A model generated the notes under the pieces. The model was not told the DNA's origin. It was given only the letters and a program-made list of their open reading frames with translations, and searched no databases. Below are positions 2,240 through 53,156 of a stretch of 64,000 bases of DNA, piece after piece (within the stretch, counting starts at the first letter, position 1; each line of letters starts with the position of its first letter). The DNA comes from Candidatus Dadabacteria bacterium. Its GTDB lineage: Bacteria > Desulfobacterota_D > UBA1144 > Nemesobacterales > Nemesobacteraceae. Made by a program: the position numbers and the translations under genes. The DNA is taken from NCBI GenBank assembly GCA_028823955.1, contig JAPPFE010000020.1:19797-83796 (forward strand), given 5' to 3'.

Positions 2240-4174
2240 TTACGAATGTTTTTCCCGGTATACGTAATTTCGTGCAAACAAACAAAAGGCAAGAAGAAGA
2301 AGGACAGCTTGGGGGATCGCGGTCTCATAAGAAGGATATATCCCAAGGGTATCCATGTAAGGAATGAAATCCGCCGTAGTTGAAGAAATAATTCCCGCCT
2401 CCTGGAGTTCAAGTATTCCCTTGCCGAGAAGTATGAAACAGAGCAGGTAGAGGAAAACGCTCGTGAAGGAAAAGAAGTATTTAAGAGGAATCCTGAGGGT
2501 AAACCTGTACATAAGAAAAGCTATTACGAACACAACCGCCACCCCCGCAATAAGTCCATAGATCACGTGTGGCATGGAGGAACCTGTCTGGAAGAAAAGT
2601 GCCTGGTAAAAAAGCATTGTCTCGAAAGCTTCCCTGTAGACAGCAAGGAACGAGACGAAAGCAAGAGTAAGGCCGCTTCTTCGGGTAAGCGCGCCTTGGG
2701 TTTTGGAGCGGACGTATTCCTTCCATTTTTTTACGTCCGCCTTTGAGATAAGCCAGTAACTTACGTAAAAAAGAATCACTGCTGCCAGAAGAGAAGTCAC
2801 TCCTTCCACAATCTCCCTCCTAGCCCCCGAGATATCTATTATGGTTCTTGCCGCAACCCACGTCGCCAGTCCTGCAAAGAGGGCAAGCACCCACCCGTAG
2901 TGAACGTACCTGATCATCCCGCGGTTACCTGAATGCGCTAAAGCGGCGATAATGGCCGCGATTATCAGCAGAGCTTCAAGCGCTTCTCTGAGTATTATGG
3001 CAAAAGAATTGACAAAACTCAGGTATTTGCCGAGCGATGAGCCGCCTTGCAGGATGCGCTCCGACTCGCGAAGATCCTCCTCTATGCTAGCTTTCAGATC
3101 ATGAAGCTCGGAGGAATCCCGGTCGGACATCACTAATGACCTGAAAAATCCCATTTTTTTTTCAACCTCAAGAACAAGCGGTCTTTTTTTCGATACCAGG
3201 GCAGGTTCGATTCTCTGAAACCCTCCCAAGTACCCGTCGAGAGCCTCCTTGAAAGCCTCGTCCTTTCTGCCGGCCTCGTAAAGATCGATGGCCTCTTCAA
3301 GCTTCCTCAGGGTATGGGCTATAGCTTCGGATGCACCTCCAGCAATTCCATCCCGAAGATAAGCGGTTCTCAGGTAAAAAAGAACTTCCTCGTCACTGCC
3401 CCCGGCTCCGGCATTAAGAAGAATCTCCGCATTGCTGGCCAGGGCAAGATTTTCAAGCTTTTTTACATCATGGGGAATATTCTCCGTGGAAAGTCCAGAA
3501 GCACCTCCGCCTGAGGGAATATCTGGATACCCGAGCGAGAGAACGTAAAACGCCACATCCCATTTCTGTTTTTCGTCAAGCACCTTTTCGAACGAGGTCA
3601 TGGCGGTACCTTCGATCCCGAAAGTGGTGGTGTTGTAAACTTTAAAAGGTGAGAGCCCGAGATTTATATCAGGGTCTGTGAAATCCGTGGGAGGAGGATT
3701 GAGGGTCTTAGAGAAAGCATCGTCCGGCCTTCCTGAGAGCCCATGACAGGAGGAACAGTTCCTCACGTAAAGCTCTTTTCCGCTTTCGTAATCGGGTATA
3801 TTCGCCGGATAGGGTTTGATGTCATAGACTGAAATGATCCGCCCCTTCAGTTCACCTGCAAGGCTTTCCACTTCTGAGACGGGCCCCTTGGATACTATAA
3901 TTGAGTGCAGACGTGCGAATTTTTCGGAAAAATCAGCTGTTCCTTCTCTCTTCTCACCCGTTTTTTCCCACAGACCAGCCGCTACGGAAGAAAAGTCCAG
4001 CATCTCCTGATACTCAAATTCGTTTATGATCTTCCCTTCTTTTACGGCATTTGCGTAGTCTCCTCCTATGTAATCGACAAGAGAGAGGATCCTGTCTATC
4101 TCTGCGGCATAAGAGAGCGCGGGAAAAAGAAAAAATATGAGAACTGACAAATAGAAGAAACTTTTTTTAAGCAT
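2240..4174 (-). CDS. Fusion protein: periplasmic c-type cytochrome domain + FTR1/EfeU-family high-affinity iron permease
   Basis: Signal peptide MLKKSFFYLSVLIFFLFPALSYA. Single CXXCH heme-binding motif (NCSSCHG) with a downstream GTAMTSF Met-ligand region. C-terminal 7-TM domain carries two REXXE motifs (REALE, REAFE) typical of FTR1 permeases. The alternative upstream ATG at 4195 would give 651 aa. Confidence 0.75.
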   Translation of the reverse strand: MLKKSFFYLSVLIFFLFPALSYAAEIDRILSLVDYIGGDYANAVKEGKIINEFEYQEMLDFSSVAAGLWEKTGEKREGTADFSEKFARLHSIIVSKGPVSEVESLAGELKGRIISVYDIKPYPANIPDYESGKELYVRNCSSCHGLSGRPDDAFSKTLNPPPTDFTDPDINLGLSPFKVYNTTTFGIEGTAMTSFEKVLDEKQKWDVAFYVLSLGYPDIPSGGGASGLSTENIPHDVKKLENLALASNAEILLNAGAGGSDEEVLFYLRTAYLRDGIAGGASEAIAHTLRKLEEAIDLYEAGRKDEAFKEALDGYLGGFQRIEPALVSKKRPLVLEVEKKMGFFRSLVMSDRDSSELHDLKASIEEDLRESERILQGGSSLGKYLSFVNSFAIILREALEALLIIAAIIAALAHSGNRGMIRYVHYGWVLALFAGLATWVAARTIIDISGARREIVEGVTSLLAAVILFYVSYWLISKADVKKWKEYVRSKTQGALTRRSGLTLAFVSFLAVYREAFETMLFYQALFFQTGSSMPHVIYGLIAGVAVVFVIAFLMYRFTLRIPLKYFFSFTSVFLYLLCFILLGKGILELQEAGIISSTTADFIPYMDTLGIYPSYETAIPQAVLLLLAFCLFARNYVYREKHS

Positions 4175-4351
4175 AGTCCGCGAATATCTCCCCATCTTGG
4201 GGGTCAGGGAAGGTATTTTTTACCATTCTAGACCTTTATTGTCAATAATTCTCATTGTCGTCATTTTCGCCTATCTACATAGTTCCGTGAAGAAAATCAG
4301 ACGGGTAATTTCGCTGATTTTCTTATCTGCAAATATTTTTAAAAAAAATTC

Positions 4352-4380
4352 TTGACATCATAACTCCAGGATGTTATTAA
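4352..4380 (+). promoter_or_regulatory. Candidate sigma70-type promoter (TTGACA - 17 bp - TATTAA) for the porin operon in the AT-rich divergent intergenic region
   Basis: TTGACA at 4352..4357 and TTATTAA at about 4374..4380, about 80 bp upstream of the 4461 start codon. The intergenic region 4196..4460 is strongly AT-rich relative to its flanks. Confidence 0.35.
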
Positions 4381-4385
4381 TCTAC

Positions 4386-4410
4386 ATTATGGATATTACA
4401 TATCCATAAT
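4386..4410. promoter_or_regulatory. Perfect inverted repeat ATTATGGATAT-tac-ATATCCATAAT, a candidate operator overlapping the transcription start region
   Basis: 11-bp arms with a 3-bp spacer, seen directly in the sequence just downstream of the putative -10 element. Sits between the divergent FTR1-cytochrome gene and the porin/FMN-binding operon. Confidence 0.35.
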
Positions 4411-4460: not shown

Positions 4461-5777
4461 ATGGTTAATTATACAAAAAGGTGGAAAACGCTTTTTGTCT
4501 TTTTCCTGATTTTTTCACTCGGAGGTACGCAGATTTCTCTAGCGGGTACGGCTTCGGACGAAAAGATAAAAAAGCTTGAGGAACAGATAAAAGTTCTAGC
4601 GGATGAGATAGAAGCCATAAAGTCCGCTTCGGTAACAGAGCCTACGGTCTATGAGACGGAATTCGGCTTGGCCCCCGCGGCTTCTAAGGTCTACAGGGTT
4701 GATCAGGGAATATCGTTCGGAGGATACGGTGAGGTGCTTATAGGCAACGTAAAAGAGGGGGATGCGAACGATGTAGTGGATACCCTGAGACTGGTTCTCT
4801 ATAACGGCTACAAGTACAACGACCACATAATTTTCAACTCGGAAATCGAGTTCGAGCACGGTACGACGGGAAGCAACAAAGATGGACAATCAGGATCGGC
4901 CTCGGTTGAGTTCGCGTACGTCGATTTCCTTATAAGGGATGAGCTTAACCTTCGGGGTGGGCTTCTGCTGACTCCTTTCGGAGTTGTAAACGAGATTCAT
5001 GAGCCGACAACGTTTTACGGAGTGGGGCGACCCGAGGTGGAGAGACGGATAATTCCGAGCACATGGAGAGAGTCTGGAGCCGGGGCACATGGAACGTTTG
5101 ATCTGGGCAGCGGCGGAGAGCTTTCTTACAGGGCCTACGTGATGTCGAGCGCCGATGCTCGGGGGTTCAAGGCATCGGATAACAGAAGTCTTCGAATCAA
5201 GGGAAACAGGGCAAGATTCGAGGACATGGCTTTTGTCGGAAGGCTTGAGTACGATCCTATTCCGGGAATCAGAATCGGAGGATCCATGTACTACGGTAAC
5301 ACCGGTCAGGACGAGGAAGTTAACGGCCAGACTATAGACGGCCTCTTCCAGATGTACTCGGTTGACGGACAGTTTCAGTATGCAGGGTTAGACCTGAAGG
5401 CTTTAGCAGTCTGGACCAGTCTTGATGACGCCGCGCTTATAAACCAACTTAAAGAGTATGAAGGCAACAAATCCGTCGGGGAGGAACAGTCCGGCTGGTA
5501 TATTCTAGGAGCATATAACATTTTCTCCGCGCTTAACTCTGGAAGCAGATACATGGAGTACCTAGCGCCTTTTTTCCGATATGAACAATTTGATACCCAG
5601 GAGAAGGTTCCCGCCGGATATGAGAGAAATCCAGCGAACGACAGAACCCAGTACACTATCGGGATAAATTACAAGCCGATTCCAAACGTGGTCATAAAGG
5701 CAGAGTATCAGAATCTTGATACCGCCGCGGGTCAGGCAAAGGACCAGTACAACTTCGGGATTGGATATGTGTTTTAG
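4461..5777 (+). CDS. Outer-membrane porin, phosphate-selective porin O/P-like (N-terminal coiled coil + beta-barrel)
   Basis: Signal peptide, then a coiled-coil segment (EKIKKLEEQIKVLADEIEAIKSA). Alternating amphipathic beta-strands and a C-terminal ...YNFGIGYVF ending in aromatic Phe, typical of OMP barrels. Resembles the second porin at 44022..45293. Confidence 0.6.
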   Translation: MVNYTKRWKTLFVFFLIFSLGGTQISLAGTASDEKIKKLEEQIKVLADEIEAIKSASVTEPTVYETEFGLAPAASKVYRVDQGISFGGYGEVLIGNVKEGDANDVVDTLRLVLYNGYKYNDHIIFNSEIEFEHGTTGSNKDGQSGSASVEFAYVDFLIRDELNLRGGLLLTPFGVVNEIHEPTTFYGVGRPEVERRIIPSTWRESGAGAHGTFDLGSGGELSYRAYVMSSADARGFKASDNRSLRIKGNRARFEDMAFVGRLEYDPIPGIRIGGSMYYGNTGQDEEVNGQTIDGLFQMYSVDGQFQYAGLDLKALAVWTSLDDAALINQLKEYEGNKSVGEEQSGWYILGAYNIFSALNSGSRYMEYLAPFFRYEQFDTQEKVPAGYERNPANDRTQYTIGINYKPIPNVVIKAEYQNLDTAAGQAKDQYNFGIGYVF

Positions 5778-5890
5778 TATGCAGAACTTAAATCCGCGAT
5801 AAACGGGCGCGGGTTTATGCTTCTTTTTTTTCTCTCCTTCTCTCTCTTCAAAAGGGCAATATTCAGATAGAATGTTGCCCTTCTTTCATC

Positions 5891-6442
5891 ATGAATATGA
5901 GAATCCTTATCTTAATAACGCTTTTGTTTTTTCTGCATGGTGCCGGAGATGTCTCCGCCAAGGTCTTTCTTACCAAAGGCAAGGCGCTTGAGCTCCTTTT
6001 CCCTGAAGCAGAAGAAATAGAAAAAAGACACGTTTTTCTCACCAAGCCCCAGGCCGAAAGCGTACGTGAAATGGCCAGGGTAGAGGTAGATTCAAGACTC
6101 TACACTTTCTACATAGCGAAATCCGGCGCAAAAGAGACAGGCTACGCGGTTATCGATACCCACACTCTTCGTACCTTGACCGAAACCGTAATGTTCGTAA
6201 TAAATCCCGATGGGACGCTTCGCCACGCCGAAACTCTCGCATTTTTCGAACCCACAGATTACATGCCGAGCGGAAAATGGATAAACTTGTTCCTGGAAAA
6301 AACCAAGATGGACAGAATGAAGGTAGGAAAAGGAGTTCCCAATATTACCGGAGCCACGATAAGTGCGGTATCTTTTTCGCAAGCCACGAGAAGAGTCCTC
6401 GCAGTCTACAGGGTTATGTTCGGCACTACGGCTGATCAATAA
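5891..6442 (+). CDS. Secreted FMN-binding-domain protein (NqrC/RnfG-like), predicted substrate for covalent flavinylation
   Basis: Signal peptide MNMRILILITLLFFLHGAGDVSA. C-terminal ...VPNITGATISAVSFSQATRRVL matches the [S/T]GAT[I/V]S flavinylation motif of FMN_bind domains. ApbE is encoded immediately downstream (convergent). Confidence 0.6.
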   Translation: MNMRILILITLLFFLHGAGDVSAKVFLTKGKALELLFPEAEEIEKRHVFLTKPQAESVREMARVEVDSRLYTFYIAKSGAKETGYAVIDTHTLRTLTETVMFVINPDGTLRHAETLAFFEPTDYMPSGKWINLFLEKTKMDRMKVGKGVPNITGATISAVSFSQATRRVLAVYRVMFGTTADQ

Positions 6443-6462
6443 CTTCTATCCAGGAGAGAAAA

Positions 6463-6957
6463 ATGAAATTCTTCATTTCATCGGACATAAGAAAAAACGA
6501 TCTGTTAAAACTTGTCGTTCTGCTCACGACTATTTTCTTCCTCTTTCTGTGGCTAACAAACCTGCTGCTTTTCCTTAAGGTGGGGTTCAGCTATGAAAGC
6601 GTTGTTGAGTACTACAGGGGTTCCGAGGAGAGTTTCAGGCCTCCGAGAAGCTACCTTGGACTGCTTGAAGAAGCCCATTTCCACTTTTTCTCAATGGCCG
6701 TTTTACTTGTAACGCTAAATCATCTCTTTCTTTTCACTAACAGAAGCTCCGCTGAGAAGCTTCTCGTCATAATAGCGTCTTACGGCTCGGCCTTCCTCGA
6801 TATAGCCGGCGGCTGGCTAGTAAGATATGTAAGCCCCGAGTTTGCCTATGTTAAAATCGGCTCTTTTGTTGTCCTTCAGATATCTCTTCTTTACCTGATC
6901 ATTTTCGTAACGTTTTATCTCTACAGAAAAAAACCAGAATATCCGAAGCAGCAGTGA
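6463..6957 (+). CDS. Small integral membrane protein (about 4 TM), unknown function
   Basis: 164 aa and strongly hydrophobic. Start is 20 bp after the FMN-binding gene, so probably co-transcribed. No recognised motif. Confidence 0.45.
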   Translation: MKFFISSDIRKNDLLKLVVLLTTIFFLFLWLTNLLLFLKVGFSYESVVEYYRGSEESFRPPRSYLGLLEEAHFHFFSMAVLLVTLNHLFLFTNRSSAEKLLVIIASYGSAFLDIAGGWLVRYVSPEFAYVKIGSFVVLQISLLYLIIFVTFYLYRKKPEYPKQQ

Positions 6958-6969
6958 CTCCCCTGCACC

Positions 6970-7947
6970 CTACGGGCACGCATAAGACCCGAAGCAGGAC
7001 TTTTTCTTTCCGCTTTTCCAAACGACGAGAAAACCCAGTGATTTATCCTTCCTGGCAAACATCTTCGCGCCACGCGGACCCAGAACCGAAACGGCAGTCG
7101 AGAAGATATCGGCTTCCGTAGCGGTTTTGGAAACGGCTACAACGGAAGTCACGTCCTCAGCCGGCCAACCCGTCCTGGGATCAATTATATGGGAGTATCT
7201 TTTCCCATCGTGCTCAAAGTAGCGCTCATAATCTCCTGAAGTCGCGACACCCTTGTCCACAAGGTCAAGCTTCGAGATGATTTCGCTTCCGCTCCCGGGT
7301 TTTCTCACTCCCACATCCCAGAACTTTTTGCCTGCGGGGGGGTCCATTGCGTATATGTTTCCCCCGAAATTCACAAGCCCCCTCTTGATCCCGTTTTGCC
7401 TGGCGATATTTACCATCTCGTCAACCGCATAGCCTTTTCCTATAGCTCCGAAGTCGAGTCTGACACAGTCGCCGTCAAGGAAAACCTGGGATTTAACTTC
7501 GTCTATCTTTATTTTCCGAAAACCCGTACACCCAAGTGCGTCGCGGATCCGTGACCGGCCGGGTAACCGCCCCGCCTTGGTCTCAGTCCCCCAGAGTTCG
7601 AAAAGACTGCCGATAGTTATGTCAAAAGCCCCTTCGGTAAGCTCTGAGTACTTAATCGAGGTCCGCACGAGACGTAGAAACTCTGTGGGAACGGAAACGG
7701 GAGCAACTCCCGCATTCCTGTTCACCTCAGCAAGAACACTGTCATCCCTGTAGTTACTGAAAAGCCGGTCTATTTCCTTGGTTCTCTTCACGCAGGCATC
7801 AACAACCCGGTGAAAAAGTTCTTCGCTCGGGGAATAAAACTTAAGTTTCACCGTTGAACCCATCGAGTAAAAAGATCTCTCGTAAAGATTCTCCGTACCG
7901 TGGGAGCAGGAACAAAGAAGCAAAGCTAAAAGCACAAGAAGGCGCAT
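6970..7947 (-). CDS. apbE: FAD:protein FMN transferase ApbE (lipoprotein)
   Basis: Lipobox-like LLLCSCS signal. ApbE-family blocks GAIGKGYAVDE, SGDYERYFEHDGKRYSHIIDPRTGWP and TATEADIFSTAV. Confidence 0.85.
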   Translation of the reverse strand: MRLLVLLALLLCSCSHGTENLYERSFYSMGSTVKLKFYSPSEELFHRVVDACVKRTKEIDRLFSNYRDDSVLAEVNRNAGVAPVSVPTEFLRLVRTSIKYSELTEGAFDITIGSLFELWGTETKAGRLPGRSRIRDALGCTGFRKIKIDEVKSQVFLDGDCVRLDFGAIGKGYAVDEMVNIARQNGIKRGLVNFGGNIYAMDPPAGKKFWDVGVRKPGSGSEIISKLDLVDKGVATSGDYERYFEHDGKRYSHIIDPRTGWPAEDVTSVVAVSKTATEADIFSTAVSVLGPRGAKMFARKDKSLGFLVVWKSGKKKSCFGSYACP

Positions 7948-7975: not shown

Positions 7976-8057
7976 TGCGAGAGGAGGGAGTCGAACCCTC
8001 ACACCCTAAGGTACTAGATCCTAAATCTAGCGCGTCTGCCTGTTCCGCCACTCTCGC
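7976..8057 (-). tRNA. tRNA-Leu (anticodon TAG)
   Basis: Manual fold of the reverse complement: acceptor GCGAGAG/CTCTCGC, anticodon stem CTAGA/TCTAG with loop TTTAGGA (anticodon TAG, G37). Long variable arm, T-arm GGTTCGACTCC, discriminator A. End coordinates are within 2 nt. Confidence 0.8.
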
Positions 8058-8128: not shown

Positions 8129-8202
8129 TGGGCTGCGAGGGATTCGAACCCACGACCGACTGATTAAGAGTCAGCTGCTCTACCAGGCTGAGCTAGCAGC
8201 CC
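8129..8202 (-). tRNA. tRNA-Lys (anticodon CTT)
   Basis: Reverse complement reads GGGCTGCTAGCTCAGCCTGGTAGAGCAGCTGACTCTTAATCAGTCGGTCGTGGGTTCGAATCCCTCGCAGCCCA. Anticodon loop CTCTTAA, canonical cloverleaf. Confidence 0.85.
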
Positions 8203-21264: not shown

Positions 21265-22119
21265 GTGAGCATCAAAAATCTGTTCGCGGCGTTTCTGTTC
21301 GCCCTCTTCGCCGCGCCAGTTGTGTGCCTAGCAAAACCGCCCTGCCCAAAAAGCATAATATCGCTCACTTTGGCTTCAGATGAAATCCTAGTCGATATAA
21401 TCGGCGACAGAAAGAAAATAACTGCGCTTACCTATTTCTCGACCGACCCGCTGATCTCAAACGTCGTGGAAAAAGCGCGGGGAATTCCCCAGGTCCAAGC
21501 AAACCTCGAGCAGGTAATTGCAAAATCTCCGGATCTCGTGATAGTCGCGGGTCACACCAACCCGAACATACGCGCGCATCTTGAGGCAGCGGGAATAAAA
21601 GTACTGGTGCTCCACGAAATCGTCTCTCTTGAGAGCATAAAAAAGAATATAGAACTGGTTGGAGAGGCTGTCTGCGAGGAAGCCGCGGCGAAAAGCCTCG
21701 TAAAAAAAATGGAAGCCCAGATCGCGGATGCCAGGGCAAAGATTCCGCCTCACGCAAAAGCCCCGACGGTTCTTTTCTACGGAGCTCCAGGGTTCACGGT
21801 CGGCAACCGCTCAACCATAAACGATATAATAGAAAGTTCCGGAGCCATAAACCTCCCGGCACGCCTCGGGCTAAGCGGATACAGCAACATATCTACCGAA
21901 TACGTAATCCAGAACAATCCTGACCTAGTGCTTACAAGTAGTTATAATCCATCTCACCCGGATTTTGTGGACCAGATGTTCAAAAATTCCGCCTTCAGAG
22001 ACAAAAAGATCATAGTCGTCGCGGGAAAACATCTAGACGCCGCGTCTCATTATGCGGCACGGGCCGTAATTGATCTGGTGAACCTGATATTCAGAGCAGA
22101 AAACAATGCCGACCGGTAA
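21265..22119 (+). CDS. ABC transporter periplasmic substrate-binding protein, class III (iron-siderophore/cobalamin, BtuF/FecB-like)
   Basis: GTG start and signal peptide. TroA-like two-lobe pattern, in an operon with a FecCD permease and ATPase. Confidence 0.75.
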   Translation: MSIKNLFAAFLFALFAAPVVCLAKPPCPKSIISLTLASDEILVDIIGDRKKITALTYFSTDPLISNVVEKARGIPQVQANLEQVIAKSPDLVIVAGHTNPNIRAHLEAAGIKVLVLHEIVSLESIKKNIELVGEAVCEEAAAKSLVKKMEAQIADARAKIPPHAKAPTVLFYGAPGFTVGNRSTINDIIESSGAINLPARLGLSGYSNISTEYVIQNNPDLVLTSSYNPSHPDFVDQMFKNSAFRDKKIIVVAGKHLDAASHYAARAVIDLVNLIFRAENNADR

Positions 22120-23143
22120 GAAAACGCTTTCCGTATATGTAGTACTCGCCTCCCTGCTTCTGTTGACCGTCATTGTGTGCGTATCGCTCGGGGCGGTGAG
22201 TGTTCCGTTTGACAAGGTAGTCAGCGTGATAGCCGGCAAGCTGTTCTGGCTTGATACCGGAGCGGGAATCGAAAAATCACAGGAACTTATCGTTTGGAAC
22301 GTTAGGCTCCCCAGGGTTCTTCTCGCCGCCACCATAGGAGGAGGACTCTCAATTGTGGGAGCGGTAATGCAGGCGATGTTCAGAAACCCCCTGGCTGAAC
22401 CTGGAATACTGGGTTGGTCGAGCGGAGGGGCTTTTTTCGCCGTTCTGGTGATCTACACCGGCATTCATCAGCAGTGGTTTCTTCTGCTCCCTCTCGCTGC
22501 GTTTGCAGGCACGCTCCTCACGGCATACGCAGTCTACGGAATATCACGTTACAGGGGGTTTGTCGAGAATACGACGCTTCTTCTCTGCGGGGTAGCGCTA
22601 GGAACACTTTTTGTCTCTCTCACGACTTTCGTGCTTTCGGTATCAAACGCGTGGTCAATGAAGGAAATGCTTTTCTGGATAATGGGCGGAGTCGACTCGC
22701 GCACATGGACGCATTTCGCAATGGCAGCGGTTCCCGTGCTTGCCGCCTCGGTTACGCTGCTTTTTTACGCTAAGAACCTAAACGCAAGACTTCTAGGCTA
22801 CGAGACAGCGAAAACCGTCGGTATCGACATAGAGAAAACGACCAAGCATCTCATAGTCCTGAGTTCCCTAATAGTTGGAGCAAGCGTGGCGGTAAGCGGC
22901 ATCGTGGGGTTCGTCGGACTTATAATTCCGCACTCAATAAGATTGCTGATCGGAGTAGATCATCGCCGGCTCCTGCCCGCAAGTTTTATTGCCGGAGCCA
23001 TATTTCTGCCCGTAGCGGACCTTATAGCTAGAACCGTCATGAGCCCTGAGGAACTTCGCCTCGGGATAATCACTTCCTTCATCGGAGTTCCTTTCTTCGT
23101 GTTTCTGCTGAGGCGAAATTTCAGCGGGAGAGGAATTGCGTAG
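22106..23143 (+). CDS. ABC transporter permease, FecCD/BtuC family
   Basis: 345 aa, 9-10 TM helices, FecCD-family conserved Gly-rich segments. Confidence 0.9.
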   Translation: MPTGKKTLSVYVVLASLLLLTVIVCVSLGAVSVPFDKVVSVIAGKLFWLDTGAGIEKSQELIVWNVRLPRVLLAATIGGGLSIVGAVMQAMFRNPLAEPGILGWSSGGAFFAVLVIYTGIHQQWFLLLPLAAFAGTLLTAYAVYGISRYRGFVENTTLLLCGVALGTLFVSLTTFVLSVSNAWSMKEMLFWIMGGVDSRTWTHFAMAAVPVLAASVTLLFYAKNLNARLLGYETAKTVGIDIEKTTKHLIVLSSLIVGASVAVSGIVGFVGLIIPHSIRLLIGVDHRRLLPASFIAGAIFLPVADLIARTVMSPEELRLGIITSFIGVPFFVFLLRRNFSGRGIA

Positions 23144-23912
23144 AATGCAAAGAGAACCCTTAAAAACATCGGGACTCAGTTACGGAGTAAACGGAAAAAT
23201 CATAGTTGATGACGTAAGCTTCGAGATCAAAAGAAACGAGTTTCTGGGCATAGTCGGCCCCAACGGCGCGGGGAAATCCACGCTTCTTCGCCTTCTTGCC
23301 CGTATAATCAATCCCACCGGAGGCCACATTCTGCTTGACGGAGAGGATATCTCGGGATACGAAGCAAAAGAGCTTTACAAAAAAATATCGTTTCTCCCCC
23401 AAACCTCGTATTTCGATTTTCCGCTGAGCGTGCTTGAGGTAGTACTTACGGGAAGGTATCCGTACCTGGGAACTTTCGAAAGCGAAAACACAGAAGATAT
23501 AAAGCGCGCCGAGGATTGCCTTTCGCTTGTGGACCTGGAAGGGTTTTCTCGAAGAAAAGTAACGACACTCTCGGGAGGAGAGCAGCAGAGAGTGTCGATC
23601 GCAAGGGTTCTTGCGCAGGAAACCGATTTTATTTTCCTTGACGAGCCATCCTCCCACCTTGACATACACCACAAGTTCGCCCTCATGGAACTGCTCGAGT
23701 CGCTAGCTCAAGAAGGAAAAGGGGTCGTGGCCGTTCTCCACGACCTTGATCTTGCGAGCAAGTTCTGCGAAAGGATCCTTGTACTTGAAAATGGACGAGT
23801 CGCAGCCTTGGGAGAACCGTCCCGCGTGCTTTCGGAAAAGCTTCTCTCGTCGGTATTTAAAGTAAGGGGTTCATGGGACCCCAGAGGCGAAAATCTTCTT
23901 GTTTTCCGGTAA
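23136..23912 (+). CDS. ABC transporter ATP-binding protein (FecE/BtuD-like)
   Basis: Walker A GPNGAGKST, signature LSGGEQQR, Walker B FIFLDEPSSHLD. Confidence 0.9.
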   Translation: MRRMQREPLKTSGLSYGVNGKIIVDDVSFEIKRNEFLGIVGPNGAGKSTLLRLLARIINPTGGHILLDGEDISGYEAKELYKKISFLPQTSYFDFPLSVLEVVLTGRYPYLGTFESENTEDIKRAEDCLSLVDLEGFSRRKVTTLSGGEQQRVSIARVLAQETDFIFLDEPSSHLDIHHKFALMELLESLAQEGKGVVAVLHDLDLASKFCERILVLENGRVAALGEPSRVLSEKLLSSVFKVRGSWDPRGENLLVFR

Positions 23913-44021: not shown

Positions 44022-45293
44022 CTAAAAATAGGCCTGAACCTGAGCTCTTACCATCGACTCATCAGACTCTACGCCATCGAGGGCCTCTTCCCTCTGGAAT
44101 GTGTAGTCAATCTGCACTTTCCACTTGTGATTGCCGCTTAGGTAGTAGCTAAGCCCCTGAGTGAATGTCCATACGTTGTCAAGCTCTTCTGCTTTGAACG
44201 CGTTTGGATCATTATCATAAACAACCATGGCATACCTGGAAGCAACCTCGATTTTCTTCGGAATCAGGAAGAAACCGCCCTGGACCCTGAAACCGTAGTC
44301 ATAGCCTGTTTCCACACCCGCATCGTCTGGATTCAACCATCTTCCGATATACTCACCGGTAAGATTAAATCTCGGGTCTCTGTAGTTCGCGTCGAAGGTG
44401 ATTGAAGTCATCCTGCCGTCTTCGAGTCCCGCATTCTTAATTGCCTTATTACCGGAATCACCACCTTCCTCAACGTCTACGCCCGCAACAGCGGCTCCAA
44501 TTGTAATCGTGGGTCTCTTGGCGAAATTTTCTTTCACGTTCTTCGCCTTTCCGCCGAGAAGAGCCGCCTGAATTCTAGCAGCCCAGAGCATTCCCGTATC
44601 TCCCGTGTCATTTTTCACGTTCGCACCTTCTCCCTGGAAAACGCCGAGATCATAGCGGAGCATTCCGCCACCGAGAAGACCGTAAACGCCTACACCGATA
44701 TCCCTGTCATACTGAAAGTTGTCATTTATGATAGAGCGGCCGACGAGCGGAAGAGCGGAAGAGGATGTGAGCGCCTCCCTGTTGAACGCAATCTTGTACT
44801 GACCTGCAACCGGAACAAAAGCTCTGTTCTTGGCAAACGAAAGCTTCATATCCTTGAGCTCTCCACCTCCTGAGAAATCGTACTGAACCTTATATTTCAT
44901 CCACGGGGCAAAAGCGTTACCGTCCCAAGTTACCCTGAGCCTTCTTACCCTGAAACCGAGACTTTCATTGTCCTCTCCGTCAGGGTTTATGTAGTTAGCC
45001 AGGAACTGGCTGCGGAGCCTCATCCTGAGCTTGTAGTTGCTGTCCGCGGTCTGGAAAGTAAGACCCGCGCCTTTTTTGGTTTTGACTTTTATCTTGTTGT
45101 ACCAAGCCTTGGTGTCCTTGCCCTCGTACATCTTCATGTTCATCTGCTGACTCTGTTCCTCGAGCCTTTCTATCTGCTTCTTAAGTTCCTCAATCTGTTC
45201 CCTGATGCTCTCGTCGCCACCGGCCTGGGCGGGAAGTGACATAAAGGGAAGAAGCGTCATTAAAGAAACAGCTAAAATTGCTGAAATTCTCAT
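44022..45293 (-). CDS. Phosphate-selective porin O/P family outer-membrane protein
   Basis: Signal peptide, N-terminal coiled coil (REQIEELKKQIERLEEQSQQMNM), beta-barrel with C-terminal ...QVQAYF. Immediately upstream of phoB-phoR. Confidence 0.7.
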   Translation of the reverse strand: MRISAILAVSLMTLLPFMSLPAQAGGDESIREQIEELKKQIERLEEQSQQMNMKMYEGKDTKAWYNKIKVKTKKGAGLTFQTADSNYKLRMRLRSQFLANYINPDGEDNESLGFRVRRLRVTWDGNAFAPWMKYKVQYDFSGGGELKDMKLSFAKNRAFVPVAGQYKIAFNREALTSSSALPLVGRSIINDNFQYDRDIGVGVYGLLGGGMLRYDLGVFQGEGANVKNDTGDTGMLWAARIQAALLGGKAKNVKENFAKRPTITIGAAVAGVDVEEGGDSGNKAIKNAGLEDGRMTSITFDANYRDPRFNLTGEYIGRWLNPDDAGVETGYDYGFRVQGGFFLIPKKIEVASRYAMVVYDNDPNAFKAEELDNVWTFTQGLSYYLSGNHKWKVQIDYTFQREEALDGVESDESMVRAQVQAYF

Positions 45294-45459
45294 CTCACGT
45301 CCTCCTTGATGTGGTTATTGTTCTGCTCTTAACAACTCTGGCCTAATGATATGTTTAAATGGTTAATTCAGAATAAATAGGCCGTTAATTCTATGTTAAG
45401 AGTCCGCGCCACGCAATTGATGTACACTTTCGTATTCTGTAAATTATCAGGGAAAGCAT

Positions 45460-46158
45460 ATGGAAAAGCTCATAGCAGTAGTAGATGACGAAAAAGATAT
45501 ACTCAACCTGATAACCCACCATCTAAAGCGCGAGGGGTACCAGGTAAAGCCCTTTCAGAGCGGAAAGGACTTTCTGCTCTACATAAATTCCGTTCCGCCT
45601 GATCTGGTGCTGCTTGACATCATGCTGCCCGGCATGGACGGCCTTGAGCTCTGCAGGATCCTGAAAAGCAAGCCCCAAACGCACTCAATACCCATAATCA
45701 TGATCACCGCGAAATCCACCGAGGCCGATATCGTCGTGGGCCTCGAACTCGGCGCTGATGACTATATAGTCAAGCCTTTCCGGATTCGTGAACTTGTCGC
45801 CAGAGTGAAAAGCATCTTGAGAAGATATGCGATGAAAAACCCCGGGGACGAAACACTTCGGATCGGCTCCCTCAGCATAAACCCCGCAAGCTACGAGGTC
45901 TCGGTCGATTCACAAAAAATCGACCTAACCACCACGGAGTTCAGGATACTTGAGACCCTCGCAGAAGCGGAGGGAAAAGTGTTCACCCGCGATCAACTGC
46001 TTAAAAGAAAAACCCTCTGGGGAGACGAACGGGTGGTTTTTGACAGAACGATAGACGTTCACATAAAAAACCTGAGAGAAAAACTGGGTTCTGCCGGCAA
46101 GATGATAAAGACCGTGAGAGGAATCGGTTACAAGCTAGAAGAGATCCAAACAGTTTGA
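45460..46158 (+). CDS. phoB: Phosphate regulon response regulator (OmpR/PhoB family)
   Basis: Receiver domain (VVDDEKDIL...DLVLLDIMLPGMDG) plus winged-helix C-terminus. Stop overlaps the kinase start. Confidence 0.85.
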   Translation: MEKLIAVVDDEKDILNLITHHLKREGYQVKPFQSGKDFLLYINSVPPDLVLLDIMLPGMDGLELCRILKSKPQTHSIPIIMITAKSTEADIVVGLELGADDYIVKPFRIRELVARVKSILRRYAMKNPGDETLRIGSLSINPASYEVSVDSQKIDLTTTEFRILETLAEAEGKVFTRDQLLKRKTLWGDERVVFDRTIDVHIKNLREKLGSAGKMIKTVRGIGYKLEEIQTV

Positions 46159-47522
46159 AGATATTCAGAAAACATTTCCTTTACCTGCTCTGCCTGGCCG
46201 CCGCCGCGGCTCTGCTCGCCATGCTGCTTCCCCCGGGACGCGGAATTTTGAATTACATTGTGTGCGTAGCCGCGTTTACGGCGTTCGGATTCGTGCTGTC
46301 GTGGATAATCGAAAGGGGCATTCTGAAAGACTTCTCAAGAATATCGAAAGCGCTTGAGCTTCTGCCGGAGAAGCAGAAGAAAGCCCGCAAAACAGGCCGC
46401 AAGGTAAGCGACTTCGACACGGGAGTATCAATCTCCATAAGCGAGCTCTCGGAGAGAATCTCCCTTCAGATGCAGTCAACCGAGAGGGAAGGAAACCAGC
46501 TTAAAAGTATAATCGAATCCATGAGGGAAGGAGTCATAGTGATATCCAGGGAGGAGAATCTATTGCTCGTAAACGACGCTGCGAAGGAAATGTTTGCAAT
46601 AGACGACGCGGCAATCGGCCGCCCCTACGTGGAAACCGTGAGAAATCCCGATCTCCAGAGGCTTATCTCCCGCATGAAGCAGAAGAAAAAATCGGCCACC
46701 CAAGAAATCTCCGTGCTTTACCCCCAGGAAAGATCGTATCTCGTGAGCGCCCGCGTAAGTCCCCGCTACAGGGAAATCGTGGTTGTCATTTTTGACATAA
46801 CGGAATTTAAGAAGCTTGAGCGGATGAAGGCCGATTTCGTGGCGAACGTCTCCCATGAACTCAGAACCCCGCTTACGTCCATAAAAGGGTACATCGAAAC
46901 CCTTCTTGACAGAAGCTATGACACGAACGAGGAGAAAAAGCATTTTCTCGAGATAATGGAGGAAAACACCGACAGGCTCATAGCCATAGCTTCAGACCTG
47001 CTCGTGCTGTCTGAGCTTGAAAGCGGAGGAACCGATCCCCTAGACTCCGGGAAAGGGCACGAGGAGATCGACATCGGGGAAACCATCATTCGCTCGGTGG
47101 GCTCGCTTGACTCCCTATTCTCGAGAAAAGGAGTCAACCTATCCCTTGAGATTGAAGACGGTCTGCTCCCCTACAGGGCAAACAGGTTCCTCGTGGAACG
47201 CATGCTCATTAATCTCGTTGAGAACTCGGCCAAGTACACCCCGGAAAACGGCTCTGTTGTGGTCCGCGCCTCGGCCCTAAACGGCACCTTGCGCATAGAG
47301 ATTGAAGATAACGGGATCGGAATCCCCCCAGAGCATCAAGAAAGAATATTCGAGAGGTTCTACAGGGTGGATAAGAACCGTTCGAGAGAGATAGGCGGAA
47401 CGGGACTCGGACTCAGCATAGTGAAGCACATAGTCATACAGCACGGGGGAACCATAGCTGTGAGAAGCGCGGAAGGTGAGGGAAGCACGTTCACCGTCGA
47501 GCTCCCGCGACCTGAGAAGTAA
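46155..47522 (+). CDS. phoR: Phosphate regulon sensor histidine kinase (PhoR-like, PAS + HisKA + HATPase)
   Basis: TM anchor, PAS region, H-box SHELRTPLTSI, N/G1/G2 boxes (NLVENSAKYT, DNGIGI, GGTGLGLSIV). Confidence 0.85.
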   Translation: MKIFRKHFLYLLCLAAAAALLAMLLPPGRGILNYIVCVAAFTAFGFVLSWIIERGILKDFSRISKALELLPEKQKKARKTGRKVSDFDTGVSISISELSERISLQMQSTEREGNQLKSIIESMREGVIVISREENLLLVNDAAKEMFAIDDAAIGRPYVETVRNPDLQRLISRMKQKKKSATQEISVLYPQERSYLVSARVSPRYREIVVVIFDITEFKKLERMKADFVANVSHELRTPLTSIKGYIETLLDRSYDTNEEKKHFLEIMEENTDRLIAIASDLLVLSELESGGTDPLDSGKGHEEIDIGETIIRSVGSLDSLFSRKGVNLSLEIEDGLLPYRANRFLVERMLINLVENSAKYTPENGSVVVRASALNGTLRIEIEDNGIGIPPEHQERIFERFYRVDKNRSREIGGTGLGLSIVKHIVIQHGGTIAVRSAEGEGSTFTVELPRPEK

Positions 47523-47531
47523 GCGCGGCGG

Positions 47532-48197
47532 TCAGTTCATCTCCGAAGTGTGCTGATGCTTAAGCATCTCTCCGGTGGCTATGTAGTAGGCGTTCTCGGC
47601 TATGTTGGTCGCAAGATCCGCCACTCTTTCAAGATGTCTCGCAACGTAAATGTAGCGAAGCGCCCGGTTAAGCGTTGAGGGGTCCGATATCACAAAGGTT
47701 ATAAGCTCCCTCACTATCTGGGGTTCGTAGTTATCGACTTCGTCGTCTTTGCGACAGACCTCGACGGCGAGTCGTTCATCGCTTCTTATAAACGCGTCCA
47801 AGGCCTCGCGGAGCATCTCCATCGCCTTGTCAGCCATCTTGGGAATATCAATAAGCGGCTTTATAGGCGGGTAGTCGGCCATGAAAAGAGCCAGTCTCGA
47901 GATACTCGAGGCATGGTCCCCTATCCTCTCAAGATCGTTGTTGACCTTCATTATCATGGTGACGGTCCGCAGATCTGTGGCCTCCGGCTGGTAAAGAGCC
48001 AGTATCTTGATGCAGAGGTTGTCTATCTCGATCTCCATCGAGTTTACCTGGTCGTCCGTGCTGATAACCTCCTGAGCAAGAATCATGTTGCCTTCGCGAA
48101 GGGCCTTTATGCTCTTGGCAATCATGGTTTCGACAAGGGATGCCATCTCAAGCAGTTTCTTGTTAAGAAGCACGAGTTCCCCTTGGTACTTTATCAT
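47532..48197 (-). CDS. phoU: Phosphate signalling complex protein PhoU
   Basis: 221 aa, two PhoU repeats with the conserved E(R/D)xGD motifs (ERIGDHA, ERVADLA). Confidence 0.9.
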   Translation of the reverse strand: MIKYQGELVLLNKKLLEMASLVETMIAKSIKALREGNMILAQEVISTDDQVNSMEIEIDNLCIKILALYQPEATDLRTVTMIMKVNNDLERIGDHASSISRLALFMADYPPIKPLIDIPKMADKAMEMLREALDAFIRSDERLAVEVCRKDDEVDNYEPQIVRELITFVISDPSTLNRALRYIYVARHLERVADLATNIAENAYYIATGEMLKHQHTSEMN

Positions 48198-48221
48198 CTG
48201 TAATTGCTCCTTCGGAGATGC

Positions 48222-49097
48222 CTAGCCAAACTTGCCCGAGACGTAGTCTTCAGTGTGTTTTTTGGCAGGGTTAAGGAATATCTTCTCCGTGGTGTCAAAC
48301 TCCACTATGTCTCCTATGTACATAAAGGCCGTGTAATCCGAGACCCGGGCGGCCTGCTGCATATTGTGGGTCACGATCACTATGGTGAACTTGCTCTTAA
48401 GTTCCGTAACAAGATCCTCTATCTTGGCCGTAGCTATGGGATCAAGCGCGGAGCAGGGCTCATCCATCAAAAGCACATCCGGTTCAACCGCTATTGCCCT
48501 CGCGATGCAGAGTCTTTGCTGCTGACCTCCCGAAAGACTCATGGCGCTGTCATTAAGCCTGTCGTTTACCTCTTCCCAGAGGGCGGCGCGCTTGAGGTTC
48601 TTCTCCACGATATCGTCAAGAACAGATTTCTTCTTGATCCCCGCTATCCTGGCTCCGTAGGCGACGTTCTCGTAGATCGATTTGGGAAACGGGTTTGATT
48701 TCTGAAATACCATGCCGACCCTTTTTCTAAGATCGGTGATGTCGACATCGGAATCGAATATGCTTTTGCCGTTAATCGATATGTCCCCTTCGGTCCTGCA
48801 GTCATCAATGAGATCGTTTAAGCGGTTAAAACAGCGAAGCAGCGTGGATTTACCGCAGCCCGAAGGGCCTATAAACGCCGTGACCTGTTTTCTCGGGATA
48901 TTCATGTTGATGTCCCGAAGAGCCTGCTTCGCGCCGTAAAAAAGACTCAAGTTTTCGACTTCGGCCAAGGGATCGGGAACGGACTTTGCCTTCTTCGGTT
49001 TCTTGGCCTTGGGAGCCGGGGAAACACCGTTTGTCTCCGGGGTTTTGAACTCCTGTTTTTCCATCGGTTTTCCAGACAGCATTAAGTCTTCCTCCAC
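48222..49097 (-). CDS. pstB: Phosphate ABC transporter ATP-binding protein
   Basis: Walker [10 protein letters not shown], signature LSGGQQQRL, Walker [12 protein letters not shown], and the PstB-typical C-terminus. Confidence 0.95.
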
Positions 49098-49115
49098 TAC
49101 TTATACCCTATTAAA

Positions 49116-50732
49116 CTACACCGCGGAAGTCGCGTATTTTTTCCTTAGCCTGTTCCTTATTATTATCGCCGTTATGTTAAGCACAACTACTATCAGTATG
49201 AGCAGAAACGCAGTCATGAACACCATGGGTTTTGCTGCCTCGGCATTTGGAGACTGAAAGCCGAGATCGTATATGTGGAACCCGAGATGCATGAACTTTC
49301 TCTCGAGGTGAAGGAAGGGGAAGTGCCCGTCTATGGGAAGATCAGGCGCAAGCTTCACGACCCCCGTTATCATGAGCGGCGCTACCTCTCCGGTGGCCCG
49401 GGCGACCGCCAGAATAAGGCCCGTAAGTATGGCCGGAAGCGCGCTCGGGATAACCACCTTCCAAGTGGTCTCGAACTTCGTTGCCCCGAGTGCCAGAGAT
49501 CCCTCCCTTATGTTTCTTGGAACTGCAGCGAGTCCCTCTTCGGTCGCGACTATTACCACCGGAACAGTGAGGAGAGCGAGGGTAAGCGATGCCCACAGTA
49601 TTCCTCCCGTACCGAAAGTCGGGCTTGGGAGAGCTTCCTTGAAAAACACGGAGTCAATTATGCCCCCTACGCCGTAGAGAAAGAATCCCACTCCGAAAAC
49701 TCCGAACACTATCGATGGGACCCCGGCCAAGTTGTTAACGCATATCCGAACAATTCTCACCATCACTCCCTGCCTGGCATACTCCCGGAGATAAAGCGCC
49801 GCTATGACTCCGAAAGGCATGACCACTATGCTCATGATAAACACCATAAGAACCGTGCCGAATATCGCGGGGAAGATTCCGCCCTCGGTGTTCGCCTCTC
49901 TCGGATCATCGGAGACAAATCCCCAGAATCTTTTGACGTAAAAGCCGGCTTTTTCCAAAAATCCCATGTCGTTTGGACGAAAGGCAAGCACGATCTTCCC
50001 AAGCGGGATTACCTTCTCGTCTCCCCCGGCGGAGATCATCACCGCCTCGTTTCTGTTAAGCTCCGAGTAGAGCGCTTCGAGTTTCGCCTCGCTTTCCTTG
50101 TAGCGCTCTTCATATTCTTTTATTTTCAGGCGATGCTCGGCCTCCTTAACAGGATCGCCTTCGCCGCGCATCGCAAGGCCACGGAGCTTAAGACGCCGTT
50201 TTTCAATCCCGTAATTTATGTCTCCTATCTCGCCCTTTTCTATCTTAAGTATCTTGGCGTGTATCTCGTTTGAGTCACGTATGAGATCCCGAAGCACGGA
50301 GAAAGCCTCAGTGTCCCCGCCCGGGATCACCACCCCGTTCTTCCTTATCTCCTTTAGATAGCCGTGGTAATTACCCCACTCGTGCCGTTCCAAAATCACG
50401 GCGTCGCGAGGATAGTCGCGCGACGCTATGTCCGCCTCGTTTATCCATTTGAAGTCAAGACCGTAGAGGTCCCTGTTTCCTATCTTGAGCTTAATCCGGG
50501 ACTCAGAACTTCTTACTCCGTCGCTATCCCGCACGGACTCCTTGGCTCGAAACTGCCCTAGGTAGACAGAGCTGTCTCTAAGCGTGTAGCGCCCGATGTC
50601 CGCCGGCCACATAGAGCCCAGACCCTTTGCGGCTATGAGAAACAGAAGTCCTCCTATCATCACGAGCGTGATCATGAGGGCAAGGCCCGATATCCAAATG
50701 TAGGCGTCGCCTGCTTTCCAGAGTTTAGGCAT
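49116..50732 (-). CDS. pstA: Phosphate ABC transporter permease PstA (unusually long, about 250-aa periplasmic insert)
   Basis: C-terminal core with EAA-like loop ALGATKFETTWKVVIPSALP and 6 TM helices. 538 aa versus about 300 aa typical. Confidence 0.85.
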   Translation of the reverse strand: MPKLWKAGDAYIWISGLALMITLVMIGGLLFLIAAKGLGSMWPADIGRYTLRDSSVYLGQFRAKESVRDSDGVRSSESRIKLKIGNRDLYGLDFKWINEADIASRDYPRDAVILERHEWGNYHGYLKEIRKNGVVIPGGDTEAFSVLRDLIRDSNEIHAKILKIEKGEIGDINYGIEKRRLKLRGLAMRGEGDPVKEAEHRLKIKEYEERYKESEAKLEALYSELNRNEAVMISAGGDEKVIPLGKIVLAFRPNDMGFLEKAGFYVKRFWGFVSDDPREANTEGGIFPAIFGTVLMVFIMSIVVMPFGVIAALYLREYARQGVMVRIVRICVNNLAGVPSIVFGVFGVGFFLYGVGGIIDSVFFKEALPSPTFGTGGILWASLTLALLTVPVVIVATEEGLAAVPRNIREGSLALGATKFETTWKVVIPSALPAILTGLILAVARATGEVAPLMITGVVKLAPDLPIDGHFPFLHLERKFMHLGFHIYDLGFQSPNAEAAKPMVFMTAFLLILIVVVLNITAIIIRNRLRKKYATSAV

Positions 50733-53019: not shown

Positions 53020-53156
53020 TGAAATTACCTTGCACCCGGGACATCAGGTGCGAAAAAGACGGCTTAAAATCCGACCTCCCCGGGGTAAACGGCCGAACGC
53101 AGGCAGATCCGAAACAGTTCCGGGCCCATCCGCGCAAAAAGCCTTAAATAGCATAC

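Follow-up and report, generated by a model that had tools for sequence, protein, structure and literature searches.

Within the 64,000-nucleotide (nt) stretch of Candidatus Dadabacteria DNA analysed here (contig JAPPFE010000020.1, hereafter the window), five open reading frames (ORFs) of one region belong together around a predicted flavinylation system. On the forward strand lie a gene for a porin-like outer-membrane beta-barrel of 438 amino acids (aa) (4461-5777), the first of the unit, one for a secreted RnfG/NqrC-like FMN_bind protein of 183 aa (5891-6442), and one for a 164-aa inner-membrane protein of the Aq_1264_TM family (PF27139) with four transmembrane (TM) helices (6463-6957). A lipoprotein ApbE, the FAD:protein FMN transferase (flavin adenine dinucleotide and flavin mononucleotide, respectively; 325 aa, 6970-7947), is encoded convergently on the reverse strand with 12 nt between its stop codon and that of the TM gene, and a 651-aa fusion of cytochrome c with an FTR1/EfeU-type iron permease (2240-4195, reverse strand) diverges from the porin operon. 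The initial annotation had described the FMN_bind protein, the four-TM protein and the adjacent lipobox-bearing ApbE, and these three ORFs are as it gave them; it overlooked the porin, the divergent cytochrome c-FTR1 gene and an operator at their shared promoter. We suggest that the three-gene locus looks like the downstream part of a conserved, metal-regulated envelope module made up of the barrel, FMN_bind, Aq_1264_TM and ApbE. All functional statements below are drawn from comparative genomics and structure prediction.

The 183-aa protein begins with a hydrophobic signal-like segment (MNMRILILITLLFFLHGAGDVSA|KV, VSA|K) that was recognised by inspection and is kept in homologues; it appears to be extracytosolic, with a cleavable signal peptide rather than an N-terminal anchor. 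Taken alone, the protein scores 18 bits against Pfam FMN_bind, under the cut-off of 22, and its match to TIGR01947 reaches just 15.9 bits (cut-off 102). Many of its homologues at 50-60% identity carry precomputed PF04205 assignments, and a profile built from 23 family members matches RnfG of the solved Rnf complex (9eri_G; E=3e-6, residues 52-174), an alignment that spans nearly the whole domain and sets NITGATIT on ITGSTIT.

The C-terminal region (...VPNITGATISAVSF) contains the motif P150-N-I-T-G-A-T156 (6338-6358), of which G154, A155 and T156 are invariant in the 23 homologues, at identities as low as 46%. The same three positions are reported invariant in partner proteins from distant loci, at identities down to 21%, where the motif reads ISGATLS, IVGSTLT, IVGATLS, VSGATLT or ITGATIS. 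The Thr-containing ApbE motif pointed out in the initial annotation thus stands as that of a credible substrate, and the conserved Thr that it proposed to look for is present throughout (Thr156 in all 23 homologues and in the distant partners); it did not mention that Pro150 replaces the Asp of the motif. The canonical form is D-x-x-[S/T]-G-A-[S/T], with an Asp described as "strictly conserved" (PMC12052999), and an Asp-to-Ala change had a minor effect on flavinylation (PMC12052999). Among the distant partners of Aq_1264_TM proteins the Asp position varies (A, H, R, D), and the motif is probably functional though non-canonical at its start. Because its core is invariant, the protein matches RnfG and the Asp-to-Ala effect is minor, Thr156 (codon 6356-6358) is very likely the FMN acceptor, and we infer that the 183-aa protein is covalently flavinylated by ApbE.

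The product of 6970-7947 is, by sequence, unambiguously predicted to be a bona fide ApbE. It matches PF02424 with 273.8 bits over profile positions 1-259 of 266; its best solved relative is Listeria FmnB (7esa, E=1.2e-47), and the E. coli, Treponema and Vibrio ApbE enzymes match at 1e-36 to 1e-44. The N-terminus (MRLLVLLALLLCSC, LLLCSC) is lipobox-like by inspection, and a Cys following Ser is kept in orthologues (IVSC, TISC, LCSC; [IVLC]-S-C), which is consistent with a lipoprotein. No Nqr or Rnf genes were found within the 64-kb window.

The 164-aa protein had been likened, for its size and topology, to the small membrane components EetA and EetB of Listeria. EetB is a PF07456 subunit of the energy-coupling factor (ECF)-S type, belonging to a FAD exporter (PMC9973259). 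At E<=0.1 the 164-aa protein has no Pfam or NCBIfam match in local libraries, PF07456 included, and all 120 listed homologues, 64-94% identical, carry precomputed PF27139; the signature YYxG...LLExTHFHLF...H is present in the protein itself. An AlphaFold model (predicted local distance difference test score, pLDDT, 94.9) has four long TM helices, with a short helix and a hairpin in the first periplasmic loop. The EetB-like identity did not survive these comparisons: homology to EetB is rejected, at the level of sequence and fold, on the missing PF07456 match, the PF27139 homologues and the four-TM bundle. A HMMER scan covering 1.84 billion cluster representatives (clusters at 50% identity) returned 451 representatives of Aq_1264_TM at E<=1e-3, and a search of PDB sequences with the family profile gave nothing under E=0.2. 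Aq_1264_TM is an uncharacterised family with no solved relative.

Across the family the signature reads YYxG...LLE-x-[TS]-H-x-H-LF...[TN]-H, and among 130 non-tandem representatives the conservation is 91% for E69, 90% for H72, 97% for H74, 92% for H87, 97% for Y51 and 99% for G53. E69, H72 and H74 (codons 6667-6684) lie at the periplasmic end of TM2, and H87 (codon 6721-6723) is 13 residues deeper, near the cytoplasmic end of the same helix. The orientation comes from natural fusions. In some of these the C-terminal partner is a cytoplasmic domain (PilZ, or DtxR-type Fe_dep_repr_C plus FeoA); in others a periplasmic ApbE follows, with one more TM helix in between. The C-terminus is therefore inside and the TM1-TM2 loop periplasmic, so that E69, H72 and H74 are on the periplasmic side and look towards the flavoprotein.

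Tandem-duplicated members of the family (n=18) are informative as to how the site may be built. Their first domain keeps E69 and H72 only, and their second H74 and H87 only, the latter two spaced H-x12-H. Such a complementary split means that the site spans two domains, and single-domain proteins must therefore be dimers; this implies a site to which one subunit would contribute H72, and its partner H74 and H87. Aromatic residues are conserved on the periplasmic side (Y50, Y51, W118). Conserved basic residues lie at each face of the membrane, R/K62 and K131 at the outer one and K99 at the inner. This pattern would fit an anionic redox cofactor better than a cation pore, the candidates being heme b, with its propionates held by Lys/Arg, as the most likely, or a flavin phosphate.

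To place these proteins in context, related loci were collected by a genome scan with the single 164-aa protein, which returned only loci from Dadabacteria/Thermodesulfobacteriota, with neighbours called by phmmer; the closest genomes (96-98% protein identity) are metagenome-assembled genomes labelled Thermodesulfobacteriota or Candidatus Dadabacteria. The order porin, FMN_bind, Aq_1264_TM is found in 59/59 genome loci, and FMN_bind adjoins the TM gene in 64/64 related loci with enough flank, an arrangement that is therefore not chance. The view in the initial annotation that there is more here than a lone flavoprotein is borne out by this conservation and linkage of the membrane protein. ApbE is encoded within 10 kb in 34 of the 59 genome loci. 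Genes of the module often overlap or lie 1-3 nt apart, which suggests co-translation.

The association extends to far more divergent members. Three distant loci at ~50% identity (L066, L067 and L068) have the barrel, a 170-190-aa FMN_bind-like protein, Aq_1264_TM and ApbE all present, and in these and in L074 apbE is adjacent or overlapping. Individual look-ups of ten wider contexts found FMN_bind and/or ApbE beside distant Aq_1264_TM members in all ten: for instance, an overlapping FMN_bind gene lies upstream of the tandem protein P0249 and an FMN_bind-like gene upstream of P0318, FMN_bind is two genes away from P0365 (25% identity), and apbE overlaps P0326. In the locus of a very distant member, at 25% identity (L072, 6528-9066), the order is Aq_1264_TM, a 372-aa protein and FMN_bind, with a sigma-54 two-component system upstream; the 372-aa protein has no Pfam match and no match to the porin profile.

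Some members are physically joined to other domains; those with tandem duplications or fusions include P0249, P0251, P0264, P0277 and P0318. Aq_1264_TM is followed by one extra TM helix and ApbE in P0251, P0252 and P0254, two Aq_1264_TM domains are joined to ApbE in P0264, and P0318 combines Aq_1264_TM with Fe_dep_repr_C and FeoA. The natural fusions to ApbE are Rosetta-stone evidence of a physical or functional partnership with ApbE. The PilZ fusion hints at control by cyclic di-GMP in some lineages.

The most constant neighbour besides FMN_bind is the porin, an orthologue of which lies directly upstream of FMN_bind in 59/59 genome loci; a homologous barrel was also found in the distant loci L066, L067, L068, L070 and L074. 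The porin has a signal peptide and an N-terminal coiled coil, its Pfam matches (BBP2 and IAT_beta) are weak, and it has no relative in the PDB by sequence. A conduit of the MtrAB type across the outer membrane, formed by porin and flavoprotein, is unlikely, judged by size alone (a 438-aa barrel and a 160-aa globular domain).

Conservation of the spacer between the porin and FMN_bind genes (5778-5890) exceeds that of many codon positions. Within it are a terminator-like hairpin (AAAUCCGCG...CGCGGGUUU) with a U-run just 3' of the porin gene (5783-5831, forward strand), a CT tract whose length varies, and a 13-bp element, hairpin or palindrome (AAGGGCAAUAUUC-AGAUA-GAAUGUUGCCCUU, 5852-5882, forward strand) ending 9 nt before the FMN_bind start codon, which is itself without a Shine-Dalgarno sequence. 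The RNA fold of 5778-5900 has a free energy of -34.4 kcal/mol (z=-3.85). The terminator-like hairpin is highly conserved in the close clade and is a putative attenuator. The GGGCAATAAT...ATTATTGCCC arms of the second hairpin are kept, with a different loop, in two loci (L030 and L031), and this element may be an RNA structure or a DNA operator. No Rfam match was obtained for the conserved spacer. Together, the spacer elements suggest that the porin and the flavoprotein/TM pair may be controlled separately.

Upstream of the porin, a promoter-like element was read from the sequence (TTGACA at 4352-4357 and TATTAA at 4375-4380 with 17 nt between them; 4352-4380, forward strand). It is nearly invariant across ~24 close loci and would act as the promoter of the operon; a generic promoter scan did not have this pair in its list. 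Directly 3' of the -10 element lies a perfect 11-bp dyad (ATTATGGATAT-TAC-ATATCCATAAT, 4386-4410), a candidate repressor operator that is unique in the window (0 expected in shuffles). Its core TGGATAT-N3-ATATCCA is kept in the close clade, the changes in its arms are symmetric (ATGG..CCAT versus CTGG..CCAG), and in one locus (L023) the dyad is lengthened to 13 bp. Since changes are matched on both arms, the element behaves like a repressor operator.

Among more distant relatives, 28/32 loci have a Fur-box-like motif, TGAWAAYGAWTATCA, at the corresponding position upstream of the porin gene, at a density of 3.36/kb as against 0.20/kb in the rest of those loci (16-fold). This motif closely resembles the classical 7-1-7 Fur box; in the window, the best TGATAATNATTATCA-like site, at 4240, has 3 mismatches. 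Adjacent fur genes were found in L068 and L071.

Iron transporters of two unrelated types stand beside the module. One is the cytochrome c-FTR1 fusion, which is upstream and divergent in 27/59 related genome loci. It was identified from Pfam (FTR1, 100 bits; Cytochrom_C, 38 bits) and NCBIfam (EfeU/Ftr1), and has a signal sequence, CSSCH, two REXXE motifs (REALE and REAFE) and its cytochrome in the N-terminal periplasmic region. The other is FeoB, adjacent in L002 and L003 and near the gene for the fusion P0251. Taken together, the module looks iron-regulated. Other FTR1 systems have a cupredoxin or P19 as partner, a place that the cytochrome domain may take here; a limited literature search found no description of a cytochrome c-FTR1 fusion.

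Several features lie outside the module. A tRNA-Leu(tag) gene (7976-8057) directly upstream of apbE and a tRNA-Lys(ctt) gene (8129-8202), both on the same strand as apbE (reverse), are the only known RNAs by Rfam in the conserved intergenic regions, and apbE may share a transcript with the two tRNAs or use a promoter in the 28-nt gap. Another system that may be related to iron, at 21265-23912 (forward strand), consists of a Peripla_BP_2 binding protein and a FecCD permease, as in ATP-binding cassette (ABC) transporters of the siderophore/heme/cobalamin type; the ORF after the permease may be the ATPase. On the reverse strand, at 44022-54191, a homologue of phosphate-selective porin O/P with an N-terminal coiled coil (44022-45293) is separated by several genes (~3.8 kb) from a Pst-type phosphate ABC transporter, the permeases of which are unusually long (538 and 764 aa), and a two-component kinase lies in the same region (46155-47522). 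The possibility that the porin of the module is a paralogue of this phosphate porin was considered and rejected, as the two are unrelated.

Our preferred interpretation, which we hold with moderate confidence, is that the genes encode a metal-regulated, periplasmic, flavin-based ferric reductase module whose membrane protein would supply the electrons. Under iron limitation, a Fur-type repressor would leave the operator at 4386-4410, and the porin would let iron species into the periplasm, where ApbE would load FMN covalently onto Thr156 of the 183-aa protein. The Aq_1264_TM dimer would hold a His-ligated redox cofactor, likeliest heme b, at the periplasmic end of TM2 (between H72 and H74 of different subunits), with a second site at H87, and would pass electrons from a membrane or cytoplasmic pool to the flavoprotein. 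The latter would then reduce Fe(III) to Fe(II), which would be imported through the cytochrome c-FTR1 permease at this locus and through FeoB elsewhere. In this scheme we infer what the cofactor is, which way electrons flow and that iron is the substrate.

A wider proposal is that Aq_1264_TM forms a sixth, so far unrecognised class of transmembrane electron-transfer partner for ApbE-flavinylated proteins (a dimeric four-TM protein with an inter-subunit His-ligated cofactor). With its dedicated outer-membrane channel it would then make up a flavin-based ferric reductase of the periplasm under Fur control, by which several Gram-negative phyla would take up iron reductively and independently of TonB. 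This is put forward as tentative, and we would sooner expect some part of it to fail than all of it to hold.

A number of observations weigh against the reductase interpretation. The flavinylation motif is without its canonical Asp, Pro150 being invariant in this clade. No adjacent ApbE was seen in 25/59 loci (with flanks of up to 10 kb on either side), and under half have an iron transporter as a neighbour. The operator in the window does not have the form of a canonical Fur box, and it was only in relatives that the Fur-like motif was seen. Domain 1 of the tandem proteins offers no His to pair with H87, and a textbook bis-His di-heme arrangement does not fit them; nor was a cytoplasmic electron donor or a quinone site identified. 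Further to that, FTR1-type systems usually oxidise Fe(II) during transport, which is awkward with a reductase feeding them.

This last point is the starting place of a reverse scheme, in which the cytochrome c of the FTR1 fusion would oxidise Fe(II), and the FMN protein and Aq_1264_TM would carry electrons into the membrane, by analogy with FtrB/FtrD in FtrABCD and EfeO/EfeB in EfeUOB. Such a flow would agree with the normal coupling of transport to Fe(II) oxidation in FTR1-type permeases and with the divergent pairing of the module, in the window, with a cytochrome c-FTR1 gene whose REXXE motifs are intact. However, FTR1 is absent in 32/59 loci, others have FeoB, a direct Fe(II) importer, and FMN, whose potential is low, is suited to the reduction of iron rather than to its oxidation; we regard the scheme as distinctly improbable.

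A reading that we consider unlikely, though worth keeping in sight, is that Aq_1264_TM is itself a metal (Fe2+) channel or importer, with the flavoprotein reducing Fe(III) by means of an unlinked donor. The ExxHxH cluster at the periplasmic mouth and the deeper His on the same helix could then be a periplasmic binding site (E69/H72/H74) and an inner site (H87), the fusion to a cytoplasmic DtxR-type metal-sensing domain and FeoA resembles feedback gating of a transporter, and over half of the loci are without another iron transporter nearby. The Lys and Arg residues conserved at both ends of the path (R/K62, K131, K99) would, however, be unfavourable for cation conduction, and separate transporters (FTR1, FeoB) have been recruited beside the module in several lineages. 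A channel would also leave the flavoprotein without an electron source and the ApbE fusions without a rationale.

Those fusions, found in several lineages, and the overlapping apbE/TM genes speak instead for a part of Aq_1264_TM in flavinylation itself, either in FAD delivery across the inner membrane, as a functional and non-homologous counterpart of the Listeria FmnA/EetB FAD exporter, or in docking ApbE with its substrate. Periplasmic-side aromatics (Y50, Y51, W118) and basic residues could form a binding site for a flavin nucleotide, and ECF-type systems are the only ones for which it is known how FAD is brought to periplasmic ApbE (PMC9973259). Against this, the invariant partners are FMN_bind and the porin, ApbE being absent from the flanks in 25 of the 59 loci; a general exporter would have no need of iron regulation or of a link to a single substrate; an energy-coupling component is missing; and four-TM dimers are small for a dinucleotide. 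We take a role of this kind to be quite unlikely.

The comparison made in the initial annotation, with an EetA/EetB-type component in a Gram-negative copy of the Listeria flavin-based extracellular electron transfer (EET) locus, retains a general resemblance (ApbE, FMN_bind and a small membrane protein), and Listeria FmnB happens to be the best solved relative of ApbE. We find it scarcely credible given that the membrane protein matches neither PF07456 nor any other Pfam or NCBIfam family, has PF27139 homologues and is modelled as a four-TM bundle and not as an ECF-S fold, that no Ndh2, DmkA/B or ECF-T/A genes are present in the locus, and that EetA has no demonstrated role, a clean eetA deletion giving no EET phenotype (PMC9973259).

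The flavinylation pair taken by itself is of an ordinary, already known kind. A survey of 2021 (Meheust et al., eLife) sorts the membrane partners of flavinylated proteins into five classes (PMC8238504): NapH-like (PF12801), MsrQ-like (PF01794), PepSY-like (PF03929/PF16357), DsbD (PF02683) and NqrB/RnfD (PF03116). None of the six locus proteins scanned matches any of these families at E<=0.1, and Aq_1264_TM, as judged by these profiles, is outside the five known classes. We found no mention of Aq_1264 and no description of this module in the literature, and the text supplements of the survey (PMC8238504) have no entries for Dadabacteria, Aquifex or PF03239; the module of barrel, FMN_bind, predicted Aq_1264_TM dimer and ApbE, under proposed Fur-type control, appears to be undescribed in the literature searched.

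ApbE-flavinylated proteins are established mediators of extracytosolic electron transfer, yet none of the surveyed systems has a worked-out mechanism. The locus adds a compact, consistently organised four-gene module with an uncharacterised membrane family of ~450 clusters. If the TM protein carries electrons, the module would be a small, tractable system for the wiring of a periplasmic flavoprotein to the inner membrane, would bear on iron acquisition in Gram-negatives without siderophore receptors, and would give PF27139 a function; if its role is instead to provide ApbE with FAD, it would help to answer by what route FAD gets to the periplasm in Gram-negatives.

Several known systems invite comparison. 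With the EET locus of Listeria monocytogenes (FmnB, PplA, EetA, EetB, FmnA, Ndh2, DmkA/B) the module shares an ApbE-type transferase, a secreted FMN_bind protein (here predicted to be flavinylated) and small membrane proteins, as well as, in the outcome proposed here, extracytosolic Fe(III) reduction. Unlike that locus, it has no ECF, Ndh2 or demethylmenaquinone genes, and its 164-aa protein is unrelated to EetB, the component compared (EetA was not), at the level of sequence and fold. RnfG and NqrC are the closest detectable homologues of the 183-aa protein and, as is proposed for it, receive covalent FMN from ApbE and work against a membrane partner, whereas the protein described here has an apparent cleavable signal peptide, a Pro for the Asp of the motif and no other Rnf/Nqr subunits in the window.

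Assimilatory ferric reductases of the VciB/FoxB type, with PepSY-like or MsrQ-like components, are similar in pairing a small His-bearing inner-membrane protein with a periplasmic protein that ApbE flavinylates (as predicted here), in a link to Fur (which here comes from the relatives) and in standing sometimes next to a ferrous transporter. They differ in their families (PF03929, PF16357 and PF01794, none of which is matched here), in having DUF2271 rather than FMN_bind as the partner, and in using a TonB-dependent receptor where the module has a porin; the predicted four-TM dimer with E-x-x-H-x-H...H on a single helix is a further difference. FtrABCD and EfeUOB, similarly, combine an FTR1 permease bearing REXXE with periplasmic redox proteins and a membrane component that handles electrons, but here the parts are a cytochrome c domain, a flavoprotein and Aq_1264_TM, in place of a cupredoxin, P19 and polyferredoxin or a DyP peroxidase.

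Clusters associated with flavinylation have been connected, time and again, with assimilatory iron reduction and with P19/FTR1 (PMC8238504). The P19/FTR1 clusters resemble the present one in setting the gene for a secreted FMN_bind protein that bears an ApbE motif beside that for an FTR1-family permease, with ApbE nearby (PMC8238504), the proposed role being redox chemistry that aids iron uptake. There was no P19 (PF10634) match among the six locus proteins scanned, other flanking ORFs having been identified by inspection. Clusters of P19 with FMN_bind are mostly Gram-positive, whereas the module in the window is Gram-negative, with FTR1 fused to cytochrome c and present in 27 of the 59 loci, a barrel of its own and Aq_1264_TM as the membrane partner.

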